IMG/VR virus record: IMGVR_UViG_2877285697_000001
Span: 1-16,422 of that record
Strand: one strand, 5' to 3'
DNA: 16,422 bases
From: a virus
Taxonomy: Duplodnaviria > Heunggongvirae > Uroviricota > Caudoviricetes
Numbering within the stretch: position 1 is the first letter of the stretch; the number at the start of each line of letters is the position of its first letter. A program made the position numbers and the translations under genes. Below the pieces are notes generated by a model that worked only from the letters and a program-made list of their open reading frames with translations, made no database searches and was not told the DNA's origin. Positions 1 through 16,422 of this stretch are shown piece by piece.

Positions 1-303
1 TTAACGCGTATTTTTCAGCGACTCCTGTGCAAAATACGCTGTTGCTTTTTTTAATATATCTCGCTCAAGGCGAGCTTCATTTAACGCCTTACGCAGTTGC
101 AGAATTTCAGATTCCAGTTCAGCCACCGTGCGGGAACCAGGAGTACCGAGCCCTTTTCTGGCGGCGGTAACCCATTGTCCTAAAGTGCCTTCAGGAAGGG
201 ATAATCGGGAAGCGCCTTCACTGATCGAAAGTTGATTTTCAAGAACCGTTCTGACAGCTTCGGCTTTGAACTCTTTAGAGTAACGTTGGGTTTTTCTGCT
301 CAT
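1..303 (-). CDS. IS600 OrfA, IS3-family transposase HTH subunit (100 aa)
   Basis: Six-frame ORF MSRKTQRYSKEFKAEAVRTVLENQLSISEGASRLS..., recognised as IS600/IS3-family OrfA; second copy at 4473-4775. Confidence 0.9.
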   Translation of the reverse strand: MSRKTQRYSKEFKAEAVRTVLENQLSISEGASRLSLPEGTLGQWVTAARKGLGTPGSRTVAELESEILQLRKALNEARLERDILKKATAYFAQESLKNTR

Positions 304-367
304 TATTAGCTCCTTCTGATGCCATTCTATTTCAGGAAGGAGTGTCCGTTAAACTCAGGCTACCTCA
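1..367 (-). mobile_element. IS600 (IS3 family) copy, cut by the window start; its orfA-proximal terminus ends at 367
   Basis: 351-367 AAACTCAGGCTACCTCA is the reverse complement of the left terminus TGAGGTAGCCTGAGTTT of the complete copy at 4409; orfA is identical apart from one residue. Confidence 0.85.
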
Positions 368-535
368 GGTGATATCACCACTATCCAGTCGTTACGCCAT
401 ACCTCCGATCTTGATACCGGAGAGATGTATGTCTTCCTGTGTAAGGTTGAAGCCTGGGCGATGAATATTGGTTGCCATCTGACTATTCCGCAGAGCTGCG
501 AGTTCCAGCAGCTCCGCGACAAGCAGGAGGCGTAA
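368..535 (+). pseudogene. 3' fragment of the lambdoid nin-region gene preceding ninE (ybcN-like by synteny only); 5' part removed by IS600
   Basis: Open frame runs from the IS600 terminus at 367 to TAA at 533-535, which overlaps the ninE ATG; no start codon inside the window. Confidence 0.45.
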
Positions 536-705
536 TGGCTACACCGCTTATTCGTGTCATGAACGGACACATCTACAGAGTACCAAATCGTCGTAAGCGT
601 AAGCCTGAGCTGAAGCCATCCGAAATACCAACACTGCTCGGATATACCGCCAGCCTGGTTGATAAAAAATGGTTGCGACTGGCAGCAAGGAGGAGTCATG
701 GCTGA
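535..705 (+). CDS. ninE: NinE (56 aa)
   Basis: [56 protein letters not shown]; ATG at 535 inside the longer track ORF 472-705; DLP12 ninE by recollection and synteny. Confidence 0.8.
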   Translation: MATPLIRVMNGHIYRVPNRRKRKPELKPSEIPTLLGYTASLVDKKWLRLAARRSHG

Positions 706-988
706 TTTGAGAAAAGCAGCGCGTGGTCGGGAATGCCAGGTAAGAATCCCTGGCGTATGTAATGGCAACCCTGAAACGTCTGTACTGGCACATATTTGGC
801 TGGCTGGATTGTGCGGCACCGGTATTAAACCGCCAGACCTGATTGCCACCATTGCATGTTCTGCCTGTCACGATGAGATCGACCGTCGCACGAATTTTGT
901 TGACGCTGGATATGCAAAAGAATGCGCGCTGGAAGGTCTGGCGAGAACACAGGTTATCTGGCTGAAAGAGGGGGTTATTAAGGCGTGA
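698..988 (+). CDS. ybcO: YbcO, DUF1364-type putative nuclease (96 aa)
   Basis: ATG at 698 preceded by AGGAGG (688-693); [30 protein letters not shown]...; overlaps ninE stop. Confidence 0.8.
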
Positions 989-1347
989 ATACCTACAGCA
1001 TCACACTACCCTGGCCGCCGAGCAATAACCGCTACTACCGCCATAATCGAGGGCGCACGCACATCAGCGCAGAAGGGCAGGCATACCGCGATAACGTCGC
1101 CCGAATCATTAAAGGCTCAATGCTGGATATCGGTCTGGCTATGCCTGTGAAAATCCGCATTGAGTGCTACATGCCGGATCGCCGTCGCCGTGACCTGGAT
1201 AATCTACAAAAAGCCTCTTTTGATGCACTCACCAAAGCAGGTTTCTGGCTGGATGATGCTCAGGTCGTTGATTACCGCGTTGTGAAGATGCCGGTTGTCA
1301 AAGGTGGAAAGCTGGAACTGACCATCACTGAACTGGGAGATGAATGA
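985..1347 (+). CDS. rusA: RusA Holliday-junction resolvase (120 aa), GTG start overlapping ybcO stop
   Basis: [26 protein letters not shown]...[14 protein letters not shown], near-identical to recalled E. coli K-12 RusA. Confidence 0.9.
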
Positions 1348-1484
1348 TGTTTGAGTTTTATATGGCAGAACTTCTTCGCCACCGCTGGATGCGCCTGCGC
1401 TTATATCGTTTCCCCAGTTCTGTTTTGACCGATTACCGAATACTGAGGAATTACGCCAAAACCCTGACAGGAGCAGGAGTATGA
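1344..1484 (+). CDS. ylcG: Small protein YlcG (46 aa), below the ORF-track size cutoff
   Basis: ATGATG at 1344 overlapping the rusA stop; translation [46 protein letters not shown], stop TGA 1482-1484. Confidence 0.55.
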
Positions 1485-1569
1485 AGTCAGAGATAACAAT
1501 CAACTAATACTGTTTTGTTGATTTTTGCTTGTAATTGGCGTTCTGGTCTGATTTTTGTGGAGTAAGTTG

Positions 1570-1953
1570 ATGCGTGATATTCAGATGGTTCTTGAGCGTT
1601 GGGGAGCGTGGGCGGCTAATAATCATGAAGATGTGACCTGGTCGTCCATTGCCGCCGGTTTTAAGGGATTAATTCCTTCAAAAGTAAAATCTCGCCCGCA
1701 ATGTTGTGACGATGACGCGATGATCATTTGCGGGTGCATGGCCCGTCTGAAAAAGAACAACAGCGATTTGCACGATTTATTAGTAGATTATTATGTAGTC
1801 GGTATGACATTCATGTCACTGGCAGGTAAGCATTGCTGCTCTGATGGTTATATCGGGAAAAGGTTACAGAAGGCTGAGGGCATAATTGAAGGGATGTTAA
1901 TGGCATTAGATATTCGGTTAGAGATGGATATCGTTGTTAATAACTCTAATTAA
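1570..1953 (+). CDS. quuD: Late-gene antiterminator Q (127 aa)
   Basis: [34 protein letters not shown]... from ATG 1570; the track ORF begins at an upstream TTG at 1555. Confidence 0.85.
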
Positions 1954-1969
1954 TATGCCAATTGTTTAC

Positions 1970-2004
1970 TAAAAATTATTAAAAATGGGGCGTTGCAACG
2001 CCCC
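1970..2004 (-). terminator. Candidate intrinsic terminator for the minus-strand porin transcript
   Basis: Perfect palindrome GGGGCGTTGCAACGCCCC (1987-2004); on the minus strand it is followed by a T-rich run (complement of 1970-1986). Confidence 0.4.
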
Positions 2005-2141
2005 CAAAAATAAAGGGTAATATATAACAGAAGGTTTATATAGTTAGAAGCAAGGTTGTGCTCCTAAAGGAAGTGGCTTGAGGGAGCCACTTATATGTTG
2101 GGGAGGCAAAGCCTCCCGCAACATATCTTTTAGTAATCAAA

Positions 2142-3224
2142 TTAGAACTGGTAAACCATACCTACAGCAACGATATCATCGGTAGCAACGCCAGATGCTT
2201 TCGTGAAATCGCTCTTATCAATCAGGTTGATTTTGTAATCAACAAAAGTGGACATATTTTTGTTGAAGTAATAGGTTGCACCTACATCAATATATTCAAC
2301 CAGGTCCTGATCACCCCACGCACCCAAGTCTTTTCCTTTAGATTGCAGGTAAGCAACGGACGGACGCAGACCGAAGTCGAACTGATATTGTGCAACTACT
2401 TCGAAGTTTTGTGCTTTGTTGGCAATATGGTTATTACCAAAAACAGTCATGTTCTGGGTTTCAGAATAGGTGGTAGCCAGATAGATGTTGTTCGCATCAT
2501 ATTTCAGACCAGCTGCCCATACTTCAGCATTTTGACCAGATGCATTCAGGCTGTTGTTACCGTAGATAACCTGATTATTAGTGCGGTCAGATTTAGCATA
2601 GGTTGCACCTACACCGAATCCTTCATACTCATAAGTAGTGGAGAAACCGAAACCATCACCATTAGCTTCAGTTACGTCAGTGCGGTCATTTTTACCCTGA
2701 TACTGAGCAGCAAAGTTCAGACCATCAACCAGACCAAAGAAGTCGTTGTTACGATAAGTTGCAACACCAGTGGTGCGACCAGTCATGAACACATCTGTTT
2801 GGCTCCAGGTATCGCCACCGAATTCTGGCAGAACGTCAGTCCACGCACCGATGTCATATGCTACACCGTAGTTACGGCCGTAATCGATTGAGCCGTAGTC
2901 CCCGAATTTCAGGCCTGCAAATGCAAGACGGGTTTTGTCTTTGGAGGAGCCTTGAGATTCAGCGCGGTTACCTTTGAATTCATATTCCCACTGACCGAAA
3001 CCAGTCAGTTGATCGTTGATTTGGGTTTCACCTTTGAAGCCAAGACGGGCATAAGTAGTATCACCATCATCTGCATCATTAGAGGAGAAGTAGTGCTTGG
3101 CATTAACTTTCCCGTACAGATCCAGCTTGTTACTGTCTTTATTATAAATTTCAGCTGCCTGAGCAGACATCGCCATCAGTACTGATGCAGCTACAGCAGA
3201 AATTGCCACTGTTAATTTTTTCAT
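2142..3224 (-). CDS. nmpC: Outer-membrane general porin NmpC (OmpC/OmpF/OmpD family), intact 360 aa with signal peptide
   Basis: [23 protein letters not shown] signal peptide, porin repeats, C-terminal ...VGMVYQF; sits between Q and holin as in DLP12. Confidence 0.9.
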
Positions 3225-3812
3225 CGTGAGCCCTTTTTTTTGAACTATTATTAAAAAATGATGTCACTGCGCGATAAATATTCATCTAATCAATGTGATT
3301 ATTTCAAGATGTAAGTTTTAGTTTCTCATTTAATTTGTGAAGTAGATCTCTATTTTTATCTGAACTTTTTCTATCGAAACCTATTTATGGCTCTTATTTG
3401 AACAAAAATAAACCTATTAGCTAATTTATATTAATGGCTGTTATTTATGGGGGTTCTATAATTCGGTGGTTTAATTTAAATCAACTAAAAATAACGCCGG
3501 AAATTATTTATTGGTTATTTGTTGAGGTTTTCTTATGTATTTGTGGTGGTGTTTTGAACACTCGGTAGCATTCTCATAAATATCATTCAGTGGTTTACGT
3601 ACGTAAAAAATTGGTTATGCTGTTAAGAGTGGTTACTTCGTCACGCAGCTTAAACCCGCCGTCGAGCTGGTTTTTCCATTTTTTGAGTCTCGATATTAGC
3701 TGATAACTCAATACCTGAGTTATTCACTGACTCCGAGTCTGTTACGTTTCTGCTTTTTTGCGATACGTTGTATTCCCTCAATTTACACCCGCTTTGTCTG
3801 CGAGGTGGGGTT

Positions 3813-4028
3813 ATGAAATCCATGGATAAGTTAACAACGGGTGTCGCCTATGGCACCTCAGCAGGTAGTGCCGGTTACTGGTTTTTACAGCTGCTCGATA
3901 AAGTCACGCCCTCACAGTGGGCAGCAATAGGTGTGCTGGGTAGCCTGGTATTTGGCCTGCTGACGTACCTGACAAACCTTTATTTCAAGATTAAAGAAGA
4001 TAAGCGCAAGGCTGCGAGAGGTGAATAA
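3813..4028 (+). CDS. essD: Holin EssD (71 aa)
   Basis: [71 protein letters not shown] from ATG 3813. Confidence 0.8.
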
Positions 4029-4408
4029 TGCCTCCATCATTACGAAAAGCCGTTGCTGCTGCTATTGGTGGCGGAGCAATTGCTATAGCATCAGTGTTAA
4101 TCACTGGCCCAGGTGGTAACGATGGTCTGGAAGGTGTCAGCTACATACCATACAAAGATATTGTTGGTGTATGGACTGTATGTCACGGGCATACAGGAAA
4201 AGACATCATGCTCGGTAAAACGTATACCAAAGCAGAATGCAAAGCCCTCCTGAATAAAGACCTTGCCACGGTCGCCAGACAAATTAACCCGTACATAAAA
4301 GTTGATATACCGGAAACAACGCGCGGCGCTCTTTACTCGTTCGTTTACAACGTGGGCGCTGGCAATTTCAGAACATCGACACTTCTTCGCAAAATAAACC
4401 AGGGCGAT
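4028..4408 (+). pseudogene. rrrD: Endolysin (lysozyme) RrrD, 3'-truncated by IS600 after residue 127
   Basis: [28 protein letters not shown]...; frame stops at TGA 4409-4411 formed by the IS600 terminus TGAGG; recalled K-12 RrrD is about 165 aa. Confidence 0.85.
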
Positions 4409-4472
4409 TGAGGTAGCCTGAGTTTAACGGACACTCCTTCCTGAAATAGAATGGCATCAGAAGGAGCTAATA

Positions 4473-4775
4473 ATGAGCAGAAAAACCCAACGTTACTCTA
4501 AAGAGTTCAAAGCCGAAGCTGTCAGAACGGTTCTTGAAAATCAACTTTCGATCAGTGAAGGCGCTTCCCGATTATCCCTTCCTGAAGGCACTTTAGGACA
4601 ATGGGTTACCGCCGCCAGAAAAGGGCTCGGTACTCCTGGTTCCCACACGGTGGCTGAACTGGAATCTGAAATTCTGCAACTGCGTAAGGCGTTAAATGAA
4701 GCTCGCCTTGAGCGAGATATATTAAAAAAAGCAACAGCGTATTTTGCACAGGAGTCGCTGAAAAATACGCGTTAA
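4473..4775 (+). CDS. IS600 OrfA
   Basis: 100-aa ORF; differs from the copy at 1-303 by one residue (H58 versus R58). Confidence 0.9.
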   Translation: MSRKTQRYSKEFKAEAVRTVLENQLSISEGASRLSLPEGTLGQWVTAARKGLGTPGSHTVAELESEILQLRKALNEARLERDILKKATAYFAQESLKNTR

Positions 4776-4810
4776 TCGAACAATGGCGACAACAATTTCC
4801 CATTGAAGCG

Positions 4811-5629
4811 ATGTGTCAGGTATTTGGTGTATCCAGGAGCGGTTATTACAACTGGGTACAGCATGAACCCTCAGACAGAAAACAAAGTGATGAGCGGCTA
4901 AAACTGGAGATTAAGGTGGCACATATCCGCACTCGCGAAACATATGGAACCCGGCGGCTCCAGACGGAGCTGGCAGAGAATGGCATCATCGTTGGTCGTG
5001 ACCGGCTGGCACGTCTTCGTAAGGAGCTAAGGCTACGCTGTAAGCAGAAACGCAAGTTCAGAGCGACTACGAACCCGAACCACAATCTGCCAGTTGCGCC
5101 AAATCTGCTGAACCAGACGTTCGCTCCTACAGCACCAAATCAGGTCTGGGTGGCGGACCTGACGTATGTTGCCACACAGGAGGGATGGTTGTACCTCGCT
5201 GGCATCAAAGATGTTTATACGTGCGAAATTGTCGGCTACGCCATGGGAGAGCGCATGACAAAAGAGCTGACAGGTAAAGCCCTGTTTATGGCGCTCAGGA
5301 GCCAGCGCCCACCTGCCGGGCTAATCCACCACTCTGATCGAGGTTCACAGTACTGCGCATACGATTACCGGGTCATACAGGAGCAGTCTGGTCTGAAAAC
5401 ATCAATGTCGCGTAAAGGTAACTGTTACGACAACGCTCCGATGGAAAGCTTCTGGGGAACGCTGAAAAATGAGAGCCTGAGCCACTATCGTTTTAATAAC
5501 CGGGATGAAGCCATCTCAGTAATACGGGAATACATTGAGATTTTCTACAATCGTCAGCGTCGTCACTCTCGTCTGGGGAATATCTCCCCGGCAGCCTTCA
5601 GGGAAAAATATCATCAGATGGCTGCTTAA
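4811..5629 (+). CDS. IS600 OrfB, DDE transposase catalytic subunit (made as OrfAB by -1 frameshift)
   Basis: 272-aa ORF with rve-type DDE motifs (...HSDRGSQY...NAPMESFWGTLK...), frame -1 relative to orfA. Confidence 0.9.
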   Translation: MCQVFGVSRSGYYNWVQHEPSDRKQSDERLKLEIKVAHIRTRETYGTRRLQTELAENGIIVGRDRLARLRKELRLRCKQKRKFRATTNPNHNLPVAPNLLNQTFAPTAPNQVWVADLTYVATQEGWLYLAGIKDVYTCEIVGYAMGERMTKELTGKALFMALRSQRPPAGLIHHSDRGSQYCAYDYRVIQEQSGLKTSMSRKGNCYDNAPMESFWGTLKNESLSHYRFNNRDEAISVIREYIEIFYNRQRRHSRLGNISPAAFREKYHQMAA

Positions 5630-5766
5630 AAAAAGAACAAATGGTAGTGTCCGCTATTGCCAGTACACCTCAACCGGTTACGACATCAACCAGGTCTTTG
5701 GTTTCATAACCGAGATATGTGTGTTTGAGAGCATCTTTGTAGTGGTCAACAAAAACTGGCCACCGA

Positions 5767-6915
<1,149 letters not shown>

Positions 6916-6971
6916 TATGGCACCTGTGTTGTTCTGAGGTGAGCATATCACCTCTGTTCAGGTGGCCAAAT

Positions 6972-7619
6972 TCAGTAAACCACTTCAACCCCTTCATACA
7001 ACATATCAAGACGCTCAACAATCAATCCTGTTGGAGGTTCCATTTTTAGAACGAGGGCAAACTCTCCTGGCCCACGTCGTATTGTTATACGCGGGCCGGT
7101 ACACTCCACATCCCAATTGTCTGATTTAGCTTTCCATTCATTTTCATCTATCAGTAAAGTCTCCTTACCAATAGAATTATAGAAAATTCCTGATAAAAGC
7201 ATCGGTCCATGTGGTATGGGTGAAGGTTTCACAGAAAGAATGGGTTGTTCGTTGACTACAATCAAATTTTGACAGTTATGAAACGTCACTCCTGCAAATT
7301 TTACTGTTATAGGCTCATTATGAAAATCAAACATTTCATTTGCAAAACCAGCCTGTAAGCACTTGGGATTTCTGTCAGCTATTTCCACTGTCTGTGCTGA
7401 AAGTCTACCACGAGCTCTTTTTTGATTGTATTGGGAGCAAAGAAGTGTCATTCCATTCGGATCATGTACTTTGGCATCAACGAAGTCAGGTTTAAAATGC
7501 TCATAATCATAAAATCCAAATCCACAAATTACACAGCCAAAGCCGCACCTTTGCCTTATCTGACGTTTTATTGTCTCAGGTATTCTTCTTGAGAGCCCGT
7601 GTTTATTAATATTGTCCAT
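6972..7619 (-). CDS. HNH-endonuclease-like domain protein (215 aa); the last five codons and stop lie inside the IS911 terminus
   Basis: N-terminal CGFGCVICG...YEHFKP...DPNGMTLLCSQYNQKRA resembles an HNH (His-Me finger) motif; C-terminal 140 aa unassigned; IS911 end at 6987 overlaps the 3' end. Confidence 0.5.
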   Translation of the reverse strand: MDNINKHGLSRRIPETIKRQIRQRCGFGCVICGFGFYDYEHFKPDFVDAKVHDPNGMTLLCSQYNQKRARGRLSAQTVEIADRNPKCLQAGFANEMFDFHNEPITVKFAGVTFHNCQNLIVVNEQPILSVKPSPIPHGPMLLSGIFYNSIGKETLLIDENEWKAKSDNWDVECTGPRITIRRGPGEFALVLKMEPPTGLIVERLDMLYEGVEVVY

Positions 7620-7749
7620 ATGGTTAGTACGCTATAAGTTTGTTTCTATAATTTTACCACAATAGATAAGTTTGTATCAGAAATCGCTATATGGAGTGAG
7701 CGGAATATTTATATTATTCATGCAATTGCTCTCCCGTACGCAGCCCGCA

Positions 7750-7775
7750 CTTCCGTCATCGCAGAATGACGGAAG
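7750..7775. other. Perfect 10-bp stem hairpin CTTCCGTCAT-cgcaga-ATGACGGAAG
   Basis: Exact inverted repeat 19 bp downstream of the stop of minus-strand gene 7794-8117; no T-run on either strand. Confidence 0.5.
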
Positions 7776-7793
7776 CCTTACTAACTGGCGCCT

Positions 7794-8117
7794 TTATTGA
7801 AACAGATTCTGAGGTAAATGCGGCAATACTCGACTCCACTTATCATCCTGCCACGGCTGAAGTTTTACATGTGCCGTTTCTCGGACGAGGATTGCTCGCG
7901 CTCTGTTGAGTATCTGGGGATATTCTTGCTCGATGGAAGTGAAGTGACCAGCTTCACCATGCTCCGCATCCTGAAGAAGATGAGTAACGTTCTGGTAGGC
8001 AATTAACATCACATTCCCTGCTCGCCATAACCAGGCGAGTGTGCAAAGTTCGTTATCAGTGAATTGTTTTGTGATTGGGGATTGTTGAACTGCTAGAACG
8101 AGAACGCCAGCATCCAT
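7794..8117 (-). CDS. Hypothetical protein (107 aa), no family recognised
   Basis: ATG (complement of 8115-8117) preceded by AGGGA Shine-Dalgarno on the minus strand; co-directional with flanking genes. Confidence 0.45.
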   Translation of the reverse strand: MDAGVLVLAVQQSPITKQFTDNELCTLAWLWRAGNVMLIAYQNVTHLLQDAEHGEAGHFTSIEQEYPQILNRARAILVRETAHVKLQPWQDDKWSRVLPHLPQNLFQ

Positions 8118-8228
8118 TGGCAGTCCCTATAGTAAAACCATAGCTCAGGACGCTTCGTTCAGGATAGATAATTTTATTGTACTTACCTAACTTTCTTACT
8201 ATAGCACGGTTGAAAAAGTGATTATTAC

Positions 8229-8832
8229 TCAAAAATAAACCTCACCATCAACCATATATTTGAGAGTACTTATCGCCTGCTGGGCGGATATTGTTTTCAT
8301 TAAAGGATAGTGTTTAAAAACAATGCCATTCATAAAATAGATATCACAGGTTTTATTATCTGTATTGATTATGATTTTTTCGAATGTTTTATAGGCAAGT
8401 GTACGACATAGCTCTCGCCCATTTTTACTGGTTAAGTCAATAGCATGAAAATCACCAAGTGAGCTCACCGCTTTACTCTTCAAAGTTTTTAATGATACAG
8501 AAGCCCTTCGTAATTCCTTATCTAATACTCTGATTTTTTCTGCTATAGCGGTAACTTCAGGCGCAACAGATAATGCAGCAATTAAATTATTAATTTTCAT
8601 ATGGAGCTCAATAATTTTCAACTCTAAAGTTTCATTAGCATCTTTCTTGTTTTCAACTGGTTGGATTTTACTACAATTAAAAAGCAACTCATTAATGATA
8701 TTATAATCAACCAAATCTCTCTTTATTGATGGCCTGCCACATCGATGCAGTCTTCTCATCGGACAAACATAATAGCCATGCAAACTTCCAGATACCGCCT
8801 GAACAATCATGGTATTACCACAAGCCTCGCAC
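8229..8832 (-). pseudogene. C-terminal fragment of a large serine recombinase (zinc beta-ribbon plus coiled-coil), N-terminal catalytic part replaced by IS1
   Basis: PCEACGNTMIVQAVSGSLHGYYVCPMRRLHRCGRP matches the recombinase zinc-ribbon pattern C-x2-C...YYxC...C, followed by coiled-coil-like LELKIIELHMKINNLIAAL...; frame is open into the IS1 end at 8833 with no ATG. Confidence 0.55.
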
Positions 8833-8887
8833 GGTAATGCTGCCAACTTACTGATTTAGTGTATGATGGTGATTTTAAGGTGCTTGC

Positions 8888-9163
8888 GTGGCTTCCATTT
8901 CCATCAGATGTCCTTCCTGCTCCGCTACTGAAGGCGTGGTGCGTAACGGCAAAAGCACTGCCGGACATCAGCGCTATCTCTGCTCTCATTGCCGTAAAAC
9001 ATGGCAACTACAGTTCACTTACACCGCCTCTCAGCCCGGTACGCACCAGAAAATCATTGATATGGCCATGAATGGCGTCGGATGTCGCGCCAGTGCACGC
9101 ATTATGGGCGTTGGCCTCAACACGGTTTTACGTCACTTAAAAAACTCAGGCCGCAGTCGGTAA
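8888..9163 (+). CDS. insA: IS1 InsA (91 aa)
   Basis: [66 protein letters not shown]... Confidence 0.95.
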
Positions 9164-9585
9164 CCTCGCGCATACAACCGGGCAGTGATGTGATTGTCTG
9201 CGCTGAAATGGACGAACAGTGGGGCTACGTCGGTGCTAAATCACGTCAGCGCTGGCTGTTTTACGCGTATGACAGGATACGGAGGACGGTTGTGGCGCAC
9301 GTCTTCGGTGAACGCACTCTGGCCACACTGGAGCGTCTTCTGAGCCTGCTGTCGGCCTTTGAGGTCGTGGTATGGATGACGGATGGCTGGCCGCTGTATG
9401 AATCACGCCTGAAGGGAAAGCTGCACGTTATCAGCAAGCGTTACACTCAGCGCATTGAGCGACATAATCTGAATCTGAGACAACATCTGGCAAGGCTGGG
9501 ACGGAAGTCACTGTCGTTCTCAAAATCGGTGGAGCTGCATGACAAGGTCATCGGGCATTATCTGAACATAAAACACTATCAGTAA
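9082..9585 (+). CDS. insB: IS1 InsB reading frame (expressed as InsAB' by frameshift)
   Basis: 167-aa ORF ...[65 protein letters not shown]. Confidence 0.9.
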
Positions 9586-9694
9586 GTTGGAGTCATTACC
9601 GAGAACGATTTATCACCGCAGTCGGGCTAAATCCGCTAGTCTGTTGGTATGTAAGTGGTTGCATAGTCATTGCCTTATCAGTTAACGCCGCAGT

Positions 9695-9922
9695 TTAGGC
9701 GGCAGAATTACTCGCGTTAAACAATGGTGCGAGGTCGGGACGAATATCTGCTGGTTTAATCTTTCCACCAGTGGCTGAGACAATTTTCATTACATAGCGG
9801 GCATCAATTCCGCCACCGTGTAGCCAACGCCAAACTGTGGGTTGGGCTACACCGCATAGATCTGCCAGTCGTTTTTGACTACCTGTAATACTGATTGCGA
9901 GTTGAATGGTTTGATTTGTCAT
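9695..9922 (-). CDS. Cro-like HTH regulator (75 aa)
   Basis: MTNQTIQLAISITGSQKRLADLCGVAQPTVWRWLHGG... HTH; ATG (complement of 9920-9922) with AGGA 9 nt upstream; divergent from the repressor gene. Confidence 0.7.
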   Translation of the reverse strand: MTNQTIQLAISITGSQKRLADLCGVAQPTVWRWLHGGGIDARYVMKIVSATGGKIKPADIRPDLAPLFNASNSAA

Positions 9923-10032
9923 TATCAATTCCTGTTGGTATTGCAATGAATGAATAATAGCAATGCGTATTAATCCAAGCAATAGCAAAACGTGTTTTGA
10001 CCATCAATACGCAAGCGTATAAATTAAAACTT
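9923..10032. promoter_or_regulatory. Divergent immunity control region (pR-like and pRM-like promoters with operator dyads)
   Basis: Minus-strand promoter: -35 TTGCTT (complement of 9977-9982), 17-bp spacer, -10 TATTAT (complement of 9954-9959). Dyads AATAGCAATGCGTATT (9956-9971) and ATACGCAAGCGTAT (10007-10020). TATAAA (10017-10022) lies 10 nt before the cI ATG. Confidence 0.45.
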
Positions 10033-10725
10033 ATGAAAAAAGAAACTCTTGCTGATCGCTTAAACCTAGCGATGGAACAATCTGGAATGTCTCAAGGCGC
10101 TCTTGCAAAGGCGTCTGGCGTAGCTCAACCCACAATCTGGAGACTGACAAGCGGCAACGCGCGCGGCTCAACAAAAATTGTTGAAATAGCTAATGCATTG
10201 GGGGTTCGAACAGAATGGCTCTCATCAGGCATAGGCCCGATGAGAAATGACGGTCAACAATCAGGGAAGCCTGCTGTCAGCCATTCAAAATACTTCAAGA
10301 TTGACGTTCTTGATATAGAAGTCAGTGCCGGGCCGGGTGTAATCAACCGTGAGTTTGTAGAAGTTCTACGCTCGGTTGAGTACTCGTTTGACGATGCTCG
10401 TCACATGTTCGATGGCAGGAAGGCGGAAAATATCCGCATCATTAACGTGCGTGGTGACAGCATGTCAGGAACGATCGAACCAGGTGATCTTCTGTTCGTT
10501 GATATCACGGTTAAATCTTTCGACGGTGATGGTATCTATGCGTTTCTGTATGACGACACAGCCCATGTAAAGCGCCTGCAAATGATGAAGGATAAGCTGC
10601 TGGTTATCTCTGATAACAAGAGCTACTCACCGTGGGACCCGATCGAGAAAGACGAGATGAACCGGGTATTCATCTTCGGGAAAGTCATCGGAAGCATGCC
10701 GCAGACGTATAGGAAGCATGGGTAG
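10033..10725 (+). CDS. CI-like prophage repressor, N-terminal HTH plus C-terminal S24 (LexA-like) autopeptidase (230 aa)
   Basis: MKKETLADRLNLAMEQSGMSQGALAKASGVAQPTIWRL... HTH; C-terminal ...RGDSMSGTIEPGDLLFVD...HVKRLQ... Ser/Lys dyad motifs; ATG 10033 chosen inside track ORF 9997-10725. Confidence 0.85.
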   Translation: MKKETLADRLNLAMEQSGMSQGALAKASGVAQPTIWRLTSGNARGSTKIVEIANALGVRTEWLSSGIGPMRNDGQQSGKPAVSHSKYFKIDVLDIEVSAGPGVINREFVEVLRSVEYSFDDARHMFDGRKAENIRIINVRGDSMSGTIEPGDLLFVDITVKSFDGDGIYAFLYDDTAHVKRLQMMKDKLLVISDNKSYSPWDPIEKDEMNRVFIFGKVIGSMPQTYRKHG

Positions 10726-10836
10726 TGAAGGACGTGTCAACTCTATTTTGTAAGCTATCCAGACTCACAGTTGCAGATCGACGAGTAACTTACATACAGC
10801 ACAAAAAAACAATATGCGCGTGCTTTTAGACTAGAC

Positions 10837-10851
10837 TTACCATAATGGTAA
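10837..10851. promoter_or_regulatory. Perfect 15-bp palindrome TTACCATAATGGTAA overlapping the first ATG of the toxin gene
   Basis: Exact dyad symmetry (7-1-7) read directly from the sequence. Confidence 0.35.
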
Positions 10852-11255
10852 CAAGTATGATTCTTAGCAGATATGTGGGAACTCCTCCCCGTGATGGCGA
10901 GGACAGAAAGATTCAAGGTGGTCCGCTTTATTTAGATATCATTGATTTGATTGATGAATGTGACACACTGCCTTGGACCAGACGGTGTATCAGGGATGTT
11001 CAATCGCTTTCTTTAGATGCAGATGACATCAAATCTATGGTGATAAAAGCAGTCACTAAAGGGAGATTTCTAGGTTCAGAATGGTGTCAAGGCAGTAAAC
11101 CAGGTGTATGGGCAGCTTGTGATGCTTATAGCTTTGAGCACTCATTTTGGTGCCAAGCTATGCATAAAGAACTTAATAACGAGTTCTACATTAAATTTTT
11201 TGTAAACATTACTGGCAATGTAGTGCTTACAGTATCTCTTCATCTCTCTAATTGA
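10845..11255 (+). CDS. MqsR-like toxin (putative mRNA interferase); start may instead be ATG 10857
   Basis: Blocks shared with recalled E. coli MqsR: ...TRR...LSLD, DDIKSM (MqsR SDFYKSM), EFYIKFFVNITGNVVLTVSL (MqsR QVYLKITVIHDVLIVSF); toxin gene precedes antitoxin as in mqsRA. Confidence 0.6.
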   Translation: MVTSMILSRYVGTPPRDGEDRKIQGGPLYLDIIDLIDECDTLPWTRRCIRDVQSLSLDADDIKSMVIKAVTKGRFLGSEWCQGSKPGVWAACDAYSFEHSFWCQAMHKELNNEFYIKFFVNITGNVVLTVSLHLSN

Positions 11256-11279
11256 GTGATGATAAATGAGGATTTTTAT

Positions 11280-11867
11280 ATGAGAAACAACAACATATGT
11301 CCAGTTTGTGGTGTAGGTCATCTCACCGTGGAGATGGAGTATGATGATGTTACTTATAAAGGGGAAACAAAAAATCTCCCAATAAGGTTTTCTGTGTGTG
11401 ATCAATGTGGTTCGGAAACTGCCACACCAGTCGATTTACGAGAAAACAAACGAATTTTCAATGAATACAAAAAGTCTATCGATGGACTTTTAACAGGAAA
11501 AGAATTAAAAAAAATTAGAACTGAAGTATGGATGATAACCCAGCAAAAGGCATCCTCTATATTTGGTGGGGGGCCTAAGGCATTTTCCAAGTATGAATCT
11601 GATGATGTCATTCAATCAGAAGCAATGGATAAACTGATGCGTTTAGCAGCAGAAGTTCCTGATGCATTCAAAAGGTTACGGGAATTATCTGGCGAAATCA
11701 AAGTTGAAAGAACAGTCTCATCATCTAAATCTTTACCTATATGGAAATCTGAAGCAAAAGCACAATTTGAAAACGATGATCAGGGATTTGACAGCAAATC
11801 ACCAGCCCAAACAAAAATGAATCAAACATCAATAAAGATAAAAACTGTTGCTAAGCGGGTAGCATGA
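11280..11867 (+). CDS. MqsA-like antitoxin (zinc-ribbon plus XRE-type HTH) with about 60-aa C-terminal extension (195 aa)
   Basis: MRNNNICPVCGVGHL...CDQCGSE zinc ribbon; LTGKELKKIRTEVWMITQQKASSIFGGGPKAFSKYE matches the recalled MqsA HTH block (IFGGGVNAFSRYE); GAGGA 7 nt upstream of ATG 11280; canonical MqsA is about 131 aa. Confidence 0.75.
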   Translation: MRNNNICPVCGVGHLTVEMEYDDVTYKGETKNLPIRFSVCDQCGSETATPVDLRENKRIFNEYKKSIDGLLTGKELKKIRTEVWMITQQKASSIFGGGPKAFSKYESDDVIQSEAMDKLMRLAAEVPDAFKRLRELSGEIKVERTVSSSKSLPIWKSEAKAQFENDDQGFDSKSPAQTKMNQTSIKIKTVAKRVA

Positions 11868-12367
11868 TGAATGAACTTCTTAGATCAGCAATAGACGCAT
11901 TATCAATAATGCATATCAATATCAGAGAATCTAACTTTGCTTTTTCTGAAGGGTATAATAGCTTTAACTTCAACAGCATAAATAAGCAAACACAATCATT
12001 TCGTAAGATAAAAAAAATCGAAGCTATTGAATTAGTAAGTGACGATGACTCATTAAAAAATGAGCTATATTACTCTTTTCACTACTCAGTTGGGCTTAGA
12101 TTTATTGCAAAATCCGAAGAAACATCTAAAGACGAAAATGATGTTGATACAATTTTTTCTATAGAAGCAATTTTTGAGGCGATATATCGCTCAAAGAGAG
12201 AATTATCTAAAGAAGAGTTAGAAGAATTTGCTAAGCAAAATGTAGGTTTTAATGTATGGCCTTTTTGGCGAGAGTATGTTCAAAACAGCACATCCAGAAT
12301 GGGAATTACTACAATAGCTATACCATTCTTTAAATTCAATAAATCAGACATACCTTCATTAGATTAA
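11864..12367 (+). CDS. SecB-like chaperone (167 aa), translationally coupled to the antitoxin (ATGA overlap)
   Basis: N-terminal LSIMHINIRESNFAFS versus SecB FQIQRIYTKDISFEAP; C-terminal TIFSIEAIF and NVWPFWREYVQNSTSRMG...IPFFKF versus SecB GGIFSIAGIE and NILFPYARECITSMVSRG...APVNF (E. coli SecB from recollection). Confidence 0.55.
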   Translation: MMNELLRSAIDALSIMHINIRESNFAFSEGYNSFNFNSINKQTQSFRKIKKIEAIELVSDDDSLKNELYYSFHYSVGLRFIAKSEETSKDENDVDTIFSIEAIFEAIYRSKRELSKEELEEFAKQNVGFNVWPFWREYVQNSTSRMGITTIAIPFFKFNKSDIPSLD

Positions 12368-12381
12368 ATTCAAATATAACT

Positions 12382-12408
12382 CCCGGCTACCGTGCCGGGT
12401 TTTCTTTT
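12382..12408 (+). terminator. Rho-independent terminator ending the repressor/TAC transcription unit
   Basis: CCCGGC-taccgt-GCCGGG stem-loop followed by TTTTCTTTT, 15 nt after the chaperone stop. Confidence 0.65.
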
Positions 12409-12549
12409 GTCCCCTCCCCTCATCACACACCGTTCAAAAAACCACCACGACCTCACTTCAGTTATCGCTATGCGATGCAAGTCACAAAATTAATTCTTTT
12501 TGCTATCAAACATTTAATATCAAAACACATCAACTAATAGCAGTGAGTA

Positions 12550-12578
12550 TTGGTATCACCAATAGCAATAGCTATTAT
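12550..12578 (+). promoter_or_regulatory. pL-like promoter with embedded operator dyads, reading toward gam-bet-exo
   Basis: -35 TTGGTA (12550-12555), 17-bp spacer, -10 TATTAT (12573-12578); dyads TTGGT-atc-ACCAA (12550-12562) and AATAGC-aata-GCTATT (12561-12576); the latter resembles the oR dyad at 9956-9971 and overlaps the -10 in the same way. Confidence 0.45.
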
Positions 12579-12771
12579 CACCATATCGCAACAACACAAC
12601 GATACGGCAACCACCTGATTCACCGTTGCGATGACCGCTTAGATCCGCAGCTTGAATTTCAGCAGGCTTCGGGGAGTGCGAGGGATGAAACGGACGCGTG
12701 AACGTCGGTGTGACCAGCTGAAATCAACTCAACATTTCATACCTTAGTCGCTTCAACGAGGCGGCTTAGTT

Positions 12772-13062
12772 ATGACAACCGGCGGCCATCCACCGCCTGA
12801 ATACGCGCAGAAGTCTTTATATGTTCAGCAGCCCAGCTTACGGGCAGGAGTTTTTATGGTTCATCAACATTACGGAACGCAGACCGTTAATCGCGGTGCG
12901 GTCATGCCAGGAATGCTGGTCAAACGCAAAGATGGTACCTGGACTGCATCAGCTAATTTACGCGGACGACTTTATCTGCATCGCGGCATTGAGCGCACTT
13001 ATACCCGTGACTTGCTCGTGGAAGTTTTTCTCGACGGACGCGGCAACGGTCTGAATCACTAA
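12772..13062 (+). CDS. Hypothetical protein in the kil position (start uncertain: 12772, 12856 or 12904)
   Basis: ORF ends at TAA 13060-13062 inside the TCACTAA motif that I recall as the lambda kil stop overlapping the long gam leader; protein unlike lambda Kil. Confidence 0.4.
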   Translation: MTTGGHPPPEYAQKSLYVQQPSLRAGVFMVHQHYGTQTVNRGAVMPGMLVKRKDGTWTASANLRGRLYLHRGIERTYTRDLLVEVFLDGRGNGLNH

Positions 13063-13137
13063 TCCCCTTTCCTGTTTTCCGAATCAGCCTGGCATTCCGC
13101 GGGCGATTTTTTCACAGCCATTTTCAGGAGTTCAGCC

Positions 13138-13434
13138 ATGAACGCTTATTACATTCAGGATCGTCTTGAGGCTCAGAGCTGGGCGCGTCACTACCAGCAG
13201 ATCGCCCGTGAAGAGAAAGAGGCAGAACTGGCAGACGACATGGAAAAAGGCCTGCCCCAGCACCTGTTTGAATCGCTATGCATCGATCATTTGCAACGCC
13301 ACGGGGCCAGCAAAAAAGCCATTACCCGTGCGTTTGATGACGATGTTGAGTTTCAGGAGCGCATGGCAGAACACATCCGGTACATGGTTGAAACCATTGC
13401 TCACCATCAGGTTGATATTGATTCAGAGGTATAA
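13138..13434 (+). CDS. gam: Gam (short form GamS, 98 aa), RecBCD inhibitor
   Basis: [56 protein letters not shown]..., near-identical to recalled lambda Gam; AGGAG 7 nt upstream. Confidence 0.9.
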
Positions 13435-13439
13435 AACGG

Positions 13440-14225
13440 ATGAGTACAGCACTCGCAACGCTGGCTGGGAAGCTGGCTGAACGTGTCGGCATGGATTCTG
13501 TCGACCCACAGGAACTGATCACCACTCTTCGCCAGACGGCATTTAAAGGCGATGCCAGCGATGCGCAGTTCATCGCATTGTTGATCGTCGCCAACCAGTA
13601 CGGCCTTAATCCGTGGACGAAAGAAATTTACGCCTTCCCTGACAAGCAGAACGGCATCGTTCCGGTGGTGGGCGTTGATGGCTGGTCCCGTATCATCAAT
13701 GAAAACCAGCAGTTTGATGGCATGGACTTTGAGCAGGACAATGAATCCTGCACATGCCGGATTTACCGCAAGGACCGTAATCATCCGATCTGCGTTACCG
13801 AGTGGATGGATGAATGCCGCCGCGAACCATTCAAAACCCGCGAAGGCAGAGAAATCACGGGGCCGTGGCAGTCGCATCCCAAACGGATGTTACGTCATAA
13901 AGCCATGATTCAGTGTGCCCGTCTGGCCTTCGGATTTGCTGGTATCTATGACAAGGATGAAGCCGAGCGCATTGTCGAAAATACCGCATACACTGCAGAA
14001 CGTCAGCCGGAACGCGACATCACTCCGGTTAACGATGAAACCATGCAGGAGATTAACACTCTGCTGATTGCCCTGGATAAAAAATGGGATGACGACTTAT
14101 TGCCGCTCTGTTCCCAGATATTTCGCCGCGACATTCGCGCATCGTCAGAACTGACACAGGTCGAAGCAGTGAAAGCTCTCGGATTCCTGAAACAGAAAGC
14201 CACTGAGCAGAAGGTGGCAGCATGA
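13440..14225 (+). CDS. bet: Bet (Red-beta) single-strand annealing protein (261 aa)
   Basis: [72 protein letters not shown]..., near-identical to recalled lambda Bet. Confidence 0.95.
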
Positions 14226-14902
14226 CACCGGACATTATCCTGCAGCGTACCGGGATCGATGTGAGAGCTGTCGAACAGGGGGATGATGCGTGGCACAAAT
14301 TACGGCTCGGCGTCATCACCGCTTCAGAAGTTCACAACGTGATAGCAAAACCCCGCTCCGGAAAGAAGTGGCCTGACATGAAAATGTCCTACTTCCACAC
14401 CCTGCTTGCCGAGGTTTGCACCGGTGTGGCTCCGGAAGTTAACGCTAAAGCACTGGCCTGGGGAAAACAGTACGAGAACGACGCCAGAACCCTGTTTGAG
14501 TTCACTTCCGGCGTGAATGTTATTGAATCCCCGATCATCTATCGCGACGAAAGTATGCGCACCGCCTGCTCTCCCGATGGTTTATGCAGTGATGGCAACG
14601 GCCTTGAACTGAAATGCCCGTTTACCTCCCGGGATTTCATGAAGTTCCGGCTCGGTGGTTTCGAGGCCATAAAATCGGCTTACATGGCCCAGGTGCAGTA
14701 CAGCATGTGGGTGGCACGAAAAGATGCCTGGTACTTTGCCAACTATGACCCGCGGATGAAGCGTGAAGGCCTGCATTATGTCGTGATTGAGCAGGATGAA
14801 AAGTACATGGCGAGTTTTGACGAGATGGTGCCGGAGTTCATCGAAAAAATGGACGAGGCACTGGCTGAAATTGGTTTTGTATTTGGGGAGCAATGGCGAT
14901 GA
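14222..14902 (+). CDS. exo: Exo (Red-alpha) 5'-3' exonuclease (226 aa)
   Basis: [68 protein letters not shown]...; ATGA overlap with bet as in lambda. Confidence 0.95.
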
Positions 14903-15081
14903 AGCATCCTCACGATAATATCCGGGTAGGCGCGATCACTTTCGTCTACTCCGTTACAAAGCGAGGCTGGGTATTTCCCGGCCTTTCTGTTACCCGAAAT
15001 CCCCTGAAAGCACAGCGGCTGGCTGAGGAGATAAATAATAAACGGGGAGCTGTATGCACAAAGCATCTCCTGTTGAGTTAA
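14893..15081 (+). CDS. Lambda orf60a-like small protein (62 aa)
   Basis: [33 protein letters not shown]..., position immediately after exo as in lambda. Confidence 0.65.
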
Positions 15082-15245
15082 GAACGAGCATTGAGATGGC
15101 ACATAGCCTCGCTCAAATTGGAGTCAGGTTTGTGCCAATACCAGTAGAAACAGACGAAGAATTTCATACGTTAGCCGCATCCCTTTCACAAAAGCTGGAA
15201 ATGATGGTGGCGAAAGCAGAAGCAGATGAGAGAGACCAGGTATGA
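15054..15245 (+). CDS. Lambda orf63-like small protein (63 aa)
   Basis: Track [66 protein letters not shown]; position and size as lambda orf63. Confidence 0.55.
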   Translation: MHKASPVELRTSIEMAHSLAQIGVRFVPIPVETDEEFHTLAASLSQKLEMMVAKAEADERDQV

Positions 15246-15321
15246 CAACCACTGAATGCATTTTTCTGGTAGCGGGCTTCATATTCTGTGTGCTTATGCT
15301 TGCCGACATGGGACTTGTTCA

Positions 15322-15537
15322 ATGACACCTCAGCAAGAAAACGCCCTTCGCAGTATTGCCCGTCAGGCTAATTCTGAAATCAAAAAAGCCAGACAGCAGT
15401 TTCCGGATAAAAACGTCGATGACATTTGCCGTAGCGTACTGAAGAAGCACCGCGAAACGGTAACGCTGATGGGATTCACACCGACTCATTTAAGCCTGGC
15501 GATCGGCATGTTAAACGGCGTCTTTAAGGAACGGTGA
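15322..15537 (+). CDS. Lambda orf61-like small protein
   Basis: MTPQQENALRSIARQANSEIKKARQQFPDKNVDDICRSVLKKHRETVTLMGFTPTHLSLAIGMLNGVFKER from ATG 15322 inside track ORF 15256-15537. Confidence 0.55.
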   Translation: MTPQQENALRSIARQANSEIKKARQQFPDKNVDDICRSVLKKHRETVTLMGFTPTHLSLAIGMLNGVFKER

Positions 15538-15559
15538 GCATGAAAAACAAAATCATCAT

Positions 15560-15583
15560 GGAGCTACAGGCTCCTTTTTTATT
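15560..15583 (+). terminator. Candidate intrinsic terminator after the orf61-like gene
   Basis: GGAGC-tacag-GCTCC followed by TTTTTTATT. Confidence 0.45.
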
Positions 15584-15635
15584 ATTCGCATTCACCCTCA
15601 AGCGTATTAACCAACAATTCAGGGATTAATGAAAG

Positions 15636-15669
15636 ATGGCAGACATCATTGATTCAGCATCAGAAATTG
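15636..15669 (+). pseudogene. 5' stub (MADIIDSASEI...) of a gene interrupted by IS1; by position possibly the lambda ea22 equivalent
   Basis: ATG at 15636, 11 codons, then the frame enters the IS1 left end at 15670. Confidence 0.3.
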
Positions 15670-15724
15670 GGTAATGCTGCCAACTTACTGATTTAGTGTA
15701 TGATGGTGATTTTAAGGTGCTTGC

Positions 15725-16000
15725 GTGGCTTCCATTTCCATCAGATGTCCTTCCTGCTCCGCTACTGAAGGCGTGGTGCGTAACGGCAAAAGCACTGCCG
15801 GACATCAGCGCTATCTCTGCTCTCATTGCCGTAAAACATGGCAACTACAGTTCACTTACACCGCCTCTCAGCCCGGTACGCACCAGAAAATCATTGATAT
15901 GGCCATGAATGGCGTCGGATGTCGCGCCAGTGCACGCATTATGGGCGTTGGCCTCAACACGGTTTTACGTCACTTAAAAAACTCAGGCCGCAGTCGGTAA
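15725..16000 (+). CDS. insA: IS1 InsA
   Basis: Identical 91-aa translation to 8888-9163. Confidence 0.95.
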
Positions 16001-16422
16001 CCTCGCGCATACAACCGGGCAGTGATGTGATTGTCTGCGCTGAAATGGACGAACAGTGGGGCTACGTCGGTGCTAAATCACGTCAGCGCTGGCTGTTTTA
16101 CGCGTATGACAGGATACGGAGGACGGTTGTGGCGCACGTCTTCGGTGAACGCACTCTGGCCACACTGGAGCGTCTTCTGAGCCTGCTGTCGGCCTTTGAG
16201 GTCGTGGTATGGATGACGGATGGCTGGCCGCTGTATGAATCACGCCTGAAGGGAAAGCTGCACGTTATCAGCAAGCGTTACACTCAGCGCATTGAGCGAC
16301 ATAATCTGAATCTGAGACAACATCTGGCAAGGCTGGGACGGAAGTCACTGTCGTTCTCAAAATCGGTGGAGCTGCATGACAAGGTCATCGGGCATTATCT
16401 GAACATAAAACACTATCAGTAA
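15919..16422 (+). CDS. insB: IS1 InsB reading frame
   Basis: Identical 167-aa translation to 9082-9585; stop TAA at the window end. Confidence 0.9.

Follow-up and report, generated by a model that had tools for sequence, protein, structure and literature searches.

A conserved leader RNA downstream of pL as a candidate early antitermination signal in an N-less lambdoid prophage of Escherichia coli

How does a lambdoid prophage express its early leftward operon when only about 560 bp separate the pL promoter from gam and no N gene lies between them? Lambda-type N proteins, encoded first after pL, are about 100 aa long and possess an N-terminal arginine-rich motif followed by NusA- and RNA polymerase-binding regions, and the lambda-type nut site consists of boxA (CGCTCTTA) and then a boxB hairpin. 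The stretch of DNA analyzed here, referred to as the window, comprises 16,422 nucleotides (positions 1 to 16,422 of IMG/VR record IMGVR_UViG_2877285697_000001). An initial annotation of the window had remarked on the short distance and on the absence of N, ea10, ral, sieB and cIII, and had proposed a possible N remnant and a replacement gene at the kil position. The distance was borne out, the gam start codon (13138) being located 560 bp past the -10 element of pL, and none of the five genes was found in the pL-to-gam interval; the ORFs between pL and kil had no match in Pfam, NCBIfam or PHROG.

Between 9.6 and 15.7 kb, the + strand reads leftward (in the pL direction) in a lambdoid prophage whose integration site is of the DLP12 (argU tRNA) type. 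E. coli 442/2 carries an intact relative that is 99.1% identical across window positions 12300-13500 and has the order cro-like HTH gene, cI-like S24 repressor gene, three accessory genes and a non-coding stretch, followed by a gene for a "phage encoded cell division inhibitor", the genes for Gam, Bet and Exo and, farther on, integrase and tRNA-Arg. This gene order is common to the isolated phages PhiR70_1, Perceval and 4A7 (genus Bievrevirus). Positions 12409-13137 make up the immunity-left control region of a lambdoid prophage of the Bievrevirus type at the DLP12 site, and the N-less pL-to-gam arrangement is a genuine layout, being present in these viable phages as well as in intact prophages. 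At least 80% of a 1.2-kb query (window 12300-13500) was found in 1,985 of 5,426 complete E. coli genomes; a prophage with this layout is a very common lambda-like type of E. coli. The gap between cro and the cII-like gene is just 30 nt, so that no tR1-type gap exists. By themselves, the ORFs of the interval are no more than expected by chance; the operator pattern, together with the conservation and the covarying RNA seen around the ORFs, does go beyond chance.

Outside the interval, three co-directional genes (10845-12367, + strand) were located between the cI-like repressor gene and a terminator, at the position of lambda rexAB. They encode a 136-aa protein without any family match, an MqsA-family antitoxin (TIGR03830, E 7e-33) and a SecB-like chaperone (weak Pfam SecB match; PADLOC PD-T4-9_C, E 7e-4), so that the prophage seems to carry a toxin-antitoxin-chaperone module as a moron; the same slot in relatives has quite different gene content. 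It was also noticed that two direct repeats (8833 to about 9600 and 15670-16422), 6,837 bp apart and 100% identical over at least 300 nt, enclose cro, cI, pL, kil, gam, bet and exo, and that the ORFs in these repeats resemble IS1 InsA/InsB by eye. The left copy appears to split a cII/YdaT-like gene just downstream of cro; left of the repeat at 8833 the window is apparently not colinear with the intact relative, and the prophage therefore looks defective or rearranged. In addition, a perfect 367-nt inverted repeat (1-367 and 4409-4775) lies on either side of a 4-kb segment containing lysozyme-like and porin (OmpC/NmpC-like) genes, the relative orientation of which differs from that in the intact relative; this difference may reflect an inversion or may come from the assembly.

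The conserved pL module is bounded on the left by an intrinsic terminator (12382-12405, + strand; CCCGGC-TACCGT-GCCGGG followed by a T run), which ends the transcript of cI plus the moron; homology among relatives begins at 12381/12382, whichever gene is upstream. Downstream of the terminator, oL (12536-12576) consists of two 16-bp operators, AATAGCAGTGAGTATT (12536-12551) and AATAGCAATAGCTATT (12561-12576), which are spaced 25 bp apart, have the form AATAGCA-N5-TATT, and overlap a sigma-70-like pL promoter (12550-12578, + strand) with -35 TTGGTA (12550-12555), a 17-bp spacer and -10 TATTAT (12573-12578). The same motif with the same 25-bp spacing is repeated at oR (9956-9971 and 9981-9996), where the cI-like and cro-like genes diverge, and the window contains 6 matches to the motif against 0.47 expected, with none of 200 shuffles reaching 6. 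Based on this equal spacing at oR and on the excess of matches, pL and oL are considered real. No other part varies among relatives as much as the oL stretch (pi 0.34), as immunity specificity would predict, and in other immunity types the -35 position is retained as TTGACG. The promoter position predicts a transcription start site near 12585. The transcript would open with an A/C-rich 5' leader (12585-12629, + strand) containing a small hairpin (AUCG...CGAU), and the entire leader from pL to kil, about 270 nt, is without a conserved ORF.

Careful examination of this leader revealed a conserved RNA, designated X (12630-12723, + strand), with two covarying hairpins and low diversity. Hairpin Pa consists of 12645-12647 paired to 12670-12672 and 12649-12654 paired to 12663-12668; in hairpin Pb, 12690-12696 is paired to 12703-12709 around a G.G mismatch (12692/12707), and a possible pseudoknot joins 12656-12662 to 12718-12724. 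Among 37 window-type sequences, pi for X was 0.0225, about 4.5-fold below that for kil third codon positions (0.101), with values of 0.102 for the kil-gam spacer and about 0.04 for kil first and second codon positions; these loci had been chosen by an exact 24-mer situated 37 nt downstream of X, which could lower the diversity nearby. A sister clade of X, with 81% identity, is present in 15 viral contigs behind at least 8 promoter/operator types. Between the two clades, compensatory changes occur in Pa (AGCUUG/CAGGCU versus CACUUG/CAGGUG) and in the upper stem of Pb (GACG/CGUC versus GGC/GCC), and the invariant parts include a G-rich linker and the loop-to-tail complementarity of AUUUCAG with CUGAAAU. 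Pairing was retained in 96.6% of cells, versus 21-41% with slid partners, and 3 pairs were changed on both sides. As there are only two clades, the covariation comes down to about 3 compensatory and 3 wobble-compatible events. The folding energy of the leader core is not unusual (z +0.86). Searching Rfam gave no gathering-score match in the whole window and, at E<=10 for 12350-13150, only noise with E>=0.88. The pR operon of intact relatives yielded no further copy of X, nor one of the hairpin element described below. An 18-mer scan of genome contigs for distant copies of X returned only chance matches in GC-rich genomes, two clade-excluding pattern scans of viral contigs together with covariance model R3 returned nothing significant, and R3 applied to about 0.85 Mb of other phage loci detected only the two known clades.

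Overlapping the end of X is the 20-codon ORF (12685-12747, + strand) that had been singled out as a possible N remnant. Its structure is as described, with ATG at 12685, TAG at 12745-12747, the product MKRTRERRCDQLKSTQHFIP, and a frame common to ORF 12772-13062, and it begins MKRTRERR, which we take to resemble the arginine-rich motif of lambda N. Among relatives this ORF lacks conservation. In 46 close relatives, start, stop and frame all vary: 9 have ATG plus a stop, 12 have GTG plus a stop, 20 have GTG with the TAG replaced by CAG and are open for 125 codons into kil, 3 are frameshifted through a 5-nt insertion, 1 continues to 67 aa, and in 1 the start motif was not found. The sister clade of X has GTG-TAA in this frame. 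When 50,697 phage records were searched by tblastn, the N-terminus was found only at this locus, in 16 relatives, and in no N or other protein. The TAG/CAG polymorphism falls at an unpaired position of a conserved hairpin, as expected from RNA constraint rather than coding constraint, and codons 3-8 (12691-12708) coincide with Pb. Translation of the mini-ORF remains conceivable in view of a usable Shine-Dalgarno sequence (GGAG) 8 nt upstream of the start and of its commonest polymorphisms, ATG/GTG and AAA/AAG, which are start-to-start or synonymous. Nonetheless, it is most likely not a gene; like the 28 additional codons at the N-terminal end of ORF 12772, it is a reading-frame shadow of the leader RNAs. 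Measured against a lambda-type N, the leader offers only an ORF of 20-31 codons without family matches. The check for nut elements in 12580-12690 that the initial annotation had advised was likewise negative, as no boxA of the lambda, rrn or phi80 type was found within 2 mismatches in 12580-12860, and the window leader contained no GCCCTGAAAAAGGGC-like boxB hairpin.

Between X and kil lies a second structured segment, a portable intercistronic element. Its hairpin 1 (12735-12774, + strand) is a 36-39-nt hairpin with the base CAUACCU...AGUUAUG, in which CAUA pairs with UAUG, so that the AUG at 12772 is part of the stem; an SD-like GAGG is sequestered in it as well. The rest of the element (12775-12855, + strand) contains hairpin 2 (GGCGG 12781-12785 with CCGCC 12793-12797), a conserved block GCGCAGAAGTCT that is read in all three frames across different phages, and a covarying hairpin 3 (GCCC 12831-12834 with GGGC 12842-12845) just before the SD of the next gene (AGGAG, 12846-12850). 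The inner stem of hairpin 1 has at least 7 versions that are unrelated to one another yet complementary in every case, 34 sequence variants fold alike, and RNAalifold scored covariation in 8 of 19 pairs. A short ORF in the element begins MTTGGHPPP, its AUG being paired in hairpin 1 and its polyproline codons corresponding to hairpin 2. At least 120 IMG/VR contigs contain the 24-mer starting at the 12772 ATG, which is also present in phi80, HK225 and HK639 and in phages of Enterobacter and Klebsiella; the element was found in only 28 of 50,697 GenBank phage records, for example at 2994-3135 of phi80 (L008) and 33041-33182 of HK639 (L133). Directly upstream of hairpin 1 an intrinsic terminator is present in 64 of 73 other contexts, versus none of 20 window-type contexts. 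Hairpin 2 is annotated as a terminator in the HK639 record, and in some phages it is followed by a U tract and annotated likewise. In the phi80 records (NC_021190, M11919), two tL1 terminators bracket the element, the intrinsic tL1A immediately ahead of it and the rho-dependent tL1B immediately behind it. The phi80 stretch between tL1A and tL1B is homologous to 12735-12855, and the tL1 fragment mapped in M11919 overlaps the element; the window differs in lacking the intrinsic terminator ahead of the element and a U tract at hairpin 2. It is plausible that the element functions at the early/delayed-early boundary, in termination, processing or translational gating. Judged by sequence comparison, X and the hairpin element are two selectively constrained RNA modules of the leader.

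The gene that follows, which the initial annotation had read as a non-lambda gene at the kil position, is indeed unrelated to lambda kil: lambda Kil (47 aa) gave no BLASTP alignment with the window ORF product at E<=100 and belongs to PHROG 3924, unlike the window protein. Searches against the Kil and KilR families gave a KilR match. Residues 29-96 of the 96-aa ORF matched NCBIfam NF008465 (KilR "FtsZ inhibitor protein") with E 9.1e-16, the 68-aa form matched PHROG 294 (phrog_294) with E 1.5e-36, and BLASTP aligned it with Rac KilR end to end (34% identity, E 2e-11). As the NF008465 score of 57.6 bits is under the curated cut-off of 92 bits, the product represents a diverged subfamily. Like Rac KilR, it is about 70 aa long and encoded in the early-left operon just upstream of recombination genes, as required for the KilR type, the neighbors being recET in Rac and lambda-type gam/bet/exo in the window. 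By homology, then, this is a KilR-family division inhibitor, a member of an already known protein family; the role in division inhibition is assigned from this homology and from what the published work on KilR reports. Membership in the KilR family makes it an analogous replacement of lambda kil, with which it has in common the genomic position and the stop context TCACTAA but no detectable sequence similarity; by analogy, the two proteins presumably act on the same target pathway (FtsZ). In the Rac region, X was absent according to model R3, and the KilS sRNA upstream of Rac kilR is unlike X by eye.

ORF 12772-13062 had been described as the gene itself. Its frame and its lack of relationship to lambda Kil were upheld, but not its 96-aa extent, and sequence features place the start of kil at ATG 12856 rather than at 12772, giving a 68-aa protein (12856-13062, + strand). 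This ATG is preceded by the strong SD AGGAG; NCBI PGAP uses the same start for the window-type kil, under the name "phage encoded cell division inhibitor protein", and the ATGGTTCATCAA start is also used in L023 and L068, in which the upstream ORF terminates separately. The 96-aa reading was rejected, since homology is limited to residues 29-96 and the 12772 AUG is base-paired in a conserved hairpin. In public records, "Kil" is 139 aa in Perceval (L003 5249-5668) and 96 aa in PhiR70_1 (L002 6473-6763), as the open frame continues through the non-coding leader elements; the conserved protein within these overlong versions is the 68-aa C-terminal part.

Lambda kil ends in ...ATTCACTAA, and lambda-type identity begins at this point: Stx and lambda-type phages match the window only from 13056 onward, with 98.9% identity. 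TCACTAA (13056-13062, + strand), which includes the stop codon common to the window kil and lambda kil, is therefore the lambda kil stop, and the mosaic junction that had been suggested lies precisely at this codon. The lambda-type sequence contains gam (13138-13434, + strand; 98 aa, lambda GamS type; Pfam Gam, E 3e-65), followed by bet (13440-14225) and exo (14222-14902).

The put RNAs suppress pausing and termination in a factor-independent manner, which is blocked by mutations in the zinc-binding domain of rpoC. Put RNA of HK022 and HK639 is a cis-acting antiterminator RNA that binds the zinc-binding domain of the RNA polymerase beta' subunit (PMC9378689). Like put, X directly follows pL in a lambdoid phage without N and consists of two stem-loops within about 70-100 nt, and, like putL of HK639 as annotated, it occurs once in the pL leader. 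The sister clade has ...GCCAGCGGCGAAGTGGAG on the 5' side of X and TTACCAGCAGCTCTTTGCGAGGGGCTGACGGTAAACAA on its 3' side, which are the flanks of the annotated HK639 putL-like antiterminator RNA; these flanks surround X in L098, L215, L217 and L224. In L216 and L217, X is downstream of the phi80 pL, in place of the phi80 nutL region. When 132 loci sharing the 5' leader CATCGAAACGAAACATCGAYAGCTGAG were surveyed and the next cassette was classed by regular expression, 52 had a boxA/nutL type, 41 had put and 12 had X, and two cassettes were never found together; of the 27 unclassified loci, 12 examples were inspected and most of these proved to be boxA variants. In L110, a boxA cassette comes after a 5' leader of the window type. 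X thus shares with phi80/lambda nutL the slot after pL, and the two are mutually exclusive among phages sharing the 5' leader, but with X there is neither a boxA nor a lambda-type boxB, and the N gene is missing. It also differs from put in helices and linker, with no similarity in sequence or by covariance model: put models R1 and R2, which recover put in about 28 other phage loci with E<1e-15, detected nothing in the window leader or its relatives, the best window hit (E 0.85) being outside the leader. The identity of X as a put RNA, suggested by the resemblance by eye of GAUGAAACGGACGCG to put GACGAACGGCGCG, was rejected on the basis of these two models.

Other arrangements in this region were also observed. 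In the viral contigs L018 (6154-6233) and L021 (8485-8564), a put RNA (95.5 and 92.3 bits) directly abuts the hairpin element with no gene or terminator between them, an arrangement like that of X plus the element in the window. A long non-coding leader after pL is common to phi80 (L008 2270-2685) and the Klebsiella phage KO-TP1 (L131 1840-2283), its last 45 nt or so (AAAGCATTTCTCCCGCATCAGCGGGTAAC...) being found also in Enterobacter phage ENT1 (L132, about 2130-2318), and the first gene after the leader differs among the three phages. The phi80 protein annotated as N belongs to phrog_25091, a PHROG without assigned function, and has no N-terminal arginine-rich motif by eye.

Occupancy of the put/nutL slot, the need for read-through and the lack of N together lead us to infer that X is an early antitermination signal. 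In the L098 clade, X is separated from kil by genes and intrinsic terminators and no N is recognizable, and the intact relative (L001) has a terminator-like hairpin at 17624, before its TraR/xis/int region. In the scheme that we favor, with moderate confidence, the region is an immunity-left region with an N-less pL operon and two RNA modules, of which X acts in cis as the early antitermination signal. The terminator ends the cI-moron transcript, and oL/pL, coming next, is repressed through operators common with oR. The pL transcript consists of the leader and then the gene for the 68-aa Kil as the first gene. X would act on RNA polymerase as a cis-acting antitermination or anti-Rho signal, either like put, during emergence of the nascent RNA, or in the manner of a nut site, and would let transcription pass the downstream Rho-dependent and intrinsic signals without N. 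Read-through would reach kil, the Red genes and xis/int, and Kil would then block FtsZ-dependent division during lytic growth. A narrower proposal, that X is a third class of phage cis-acting antiterminator RNA, put-like in function, unrelated in sequence, and replacing N/nut and put in Bievrevirus/DLP12-type prophages, is tentative and we hold it to be somewhat doubtful; our literature search found no description of a third type of such RNA.

Alternatively, the operon may have become independent of N passively, by loss of the first terminator, needing no antitermination device at all, and the leader RNAs may serve mRNA stability or processing, translational control, or a Rho-dependent attenuation that silences the toxic kil in lysogens. 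The intrinsic terminator found upstream of hairpin 1 elsewhere is missing throughout the window lineage, so that an antiterminator is perhaps unneeded for kil-gam-bet-exo, and there is no tR1-type gap on the cro side. The C-rich, G-poor 5' leader resembles a Rho-loading (rut) site, Rac kilR is reported to be under NusG/Rho control, and the 12772 AUG and GAGG are sequestered in hairpin 1. What this explanation leaves unaccounted for is the presence of X in the exact put/nutL slot of phages with intrinsic terminators downstream, and a constraint on X above that of kil first and second codon positions; we regard it as unlikely, though deserving of serious consideration.

A different possibility is that X is not a self-sufficient RNA but recruits, in the manner of a nut site, a phage protein that acts in trans and has its gene elsewhere, e.g. 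in a later part of the pL operon or in the pR operon. The slot is the one occupied by nutL in phi80, Pb has the size of a boxB-type stem-loop, and the distance from CGCTTAGA to Pb is about 50 nt, compared by eye with 44 nt from boxA to the nut core in phi80. Against this, the region has no boxA within the tolerance applied, no ORF between X and kil and no N-like family match, and the parts of the annotated whole-phage records examined list only a Q-type antiterminator; such a site seems improbable to us. Least credible is a functional arginine-rich micro-protein, or an N-gene stump left by a deletion that also removed tL1. It would draw on the likeness of MKRTRERR to the lambda N motif and on the GGAG and conservative polymorphisms noted above, but the form is inconstant among the relatives (a stop in 21, read-through into kil in 20 and a frameshift in 3), GTG TAA replaces it in the sister clade, no N shares its N-terminus and no family matches it. 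Moreover, 20 aa are too short to hold the NusA- and RNA polymerase-binding parts of N, and the unpaired position of the TAG/CAG site is what an RNA constraint predicts; we give this reading hardly any credence.

The protein-coding part of the region is ordinary, since the kil family has already been named and N-less lambdoid phages are known, although gene calls can now be corrected in the many records carrying "Kil" ORFs of 96-139 aa that cross non-coding RNA elements. X is most likely a new variant of RNA-based early antitermination and itself an undescribed element. To our knowledge, essentially one family of RNA-only processive antitermination is known, that of put in HK022 and HK639, and put serves as a key model of the reprogramming of RNA polymerase by nascent RNA. 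If the proposed function is true, X would be a second, unrelated RNA in the same slot, an independent solution comparable with put. It is abundant in E. coli, prophages with this region being present in about one-third of the complete genomes, and it behaves as a cassette interchangeable with put and nutL. Such a function of X would explain the early-left expression of kil, Red and xis/int in a very common group of prophages.
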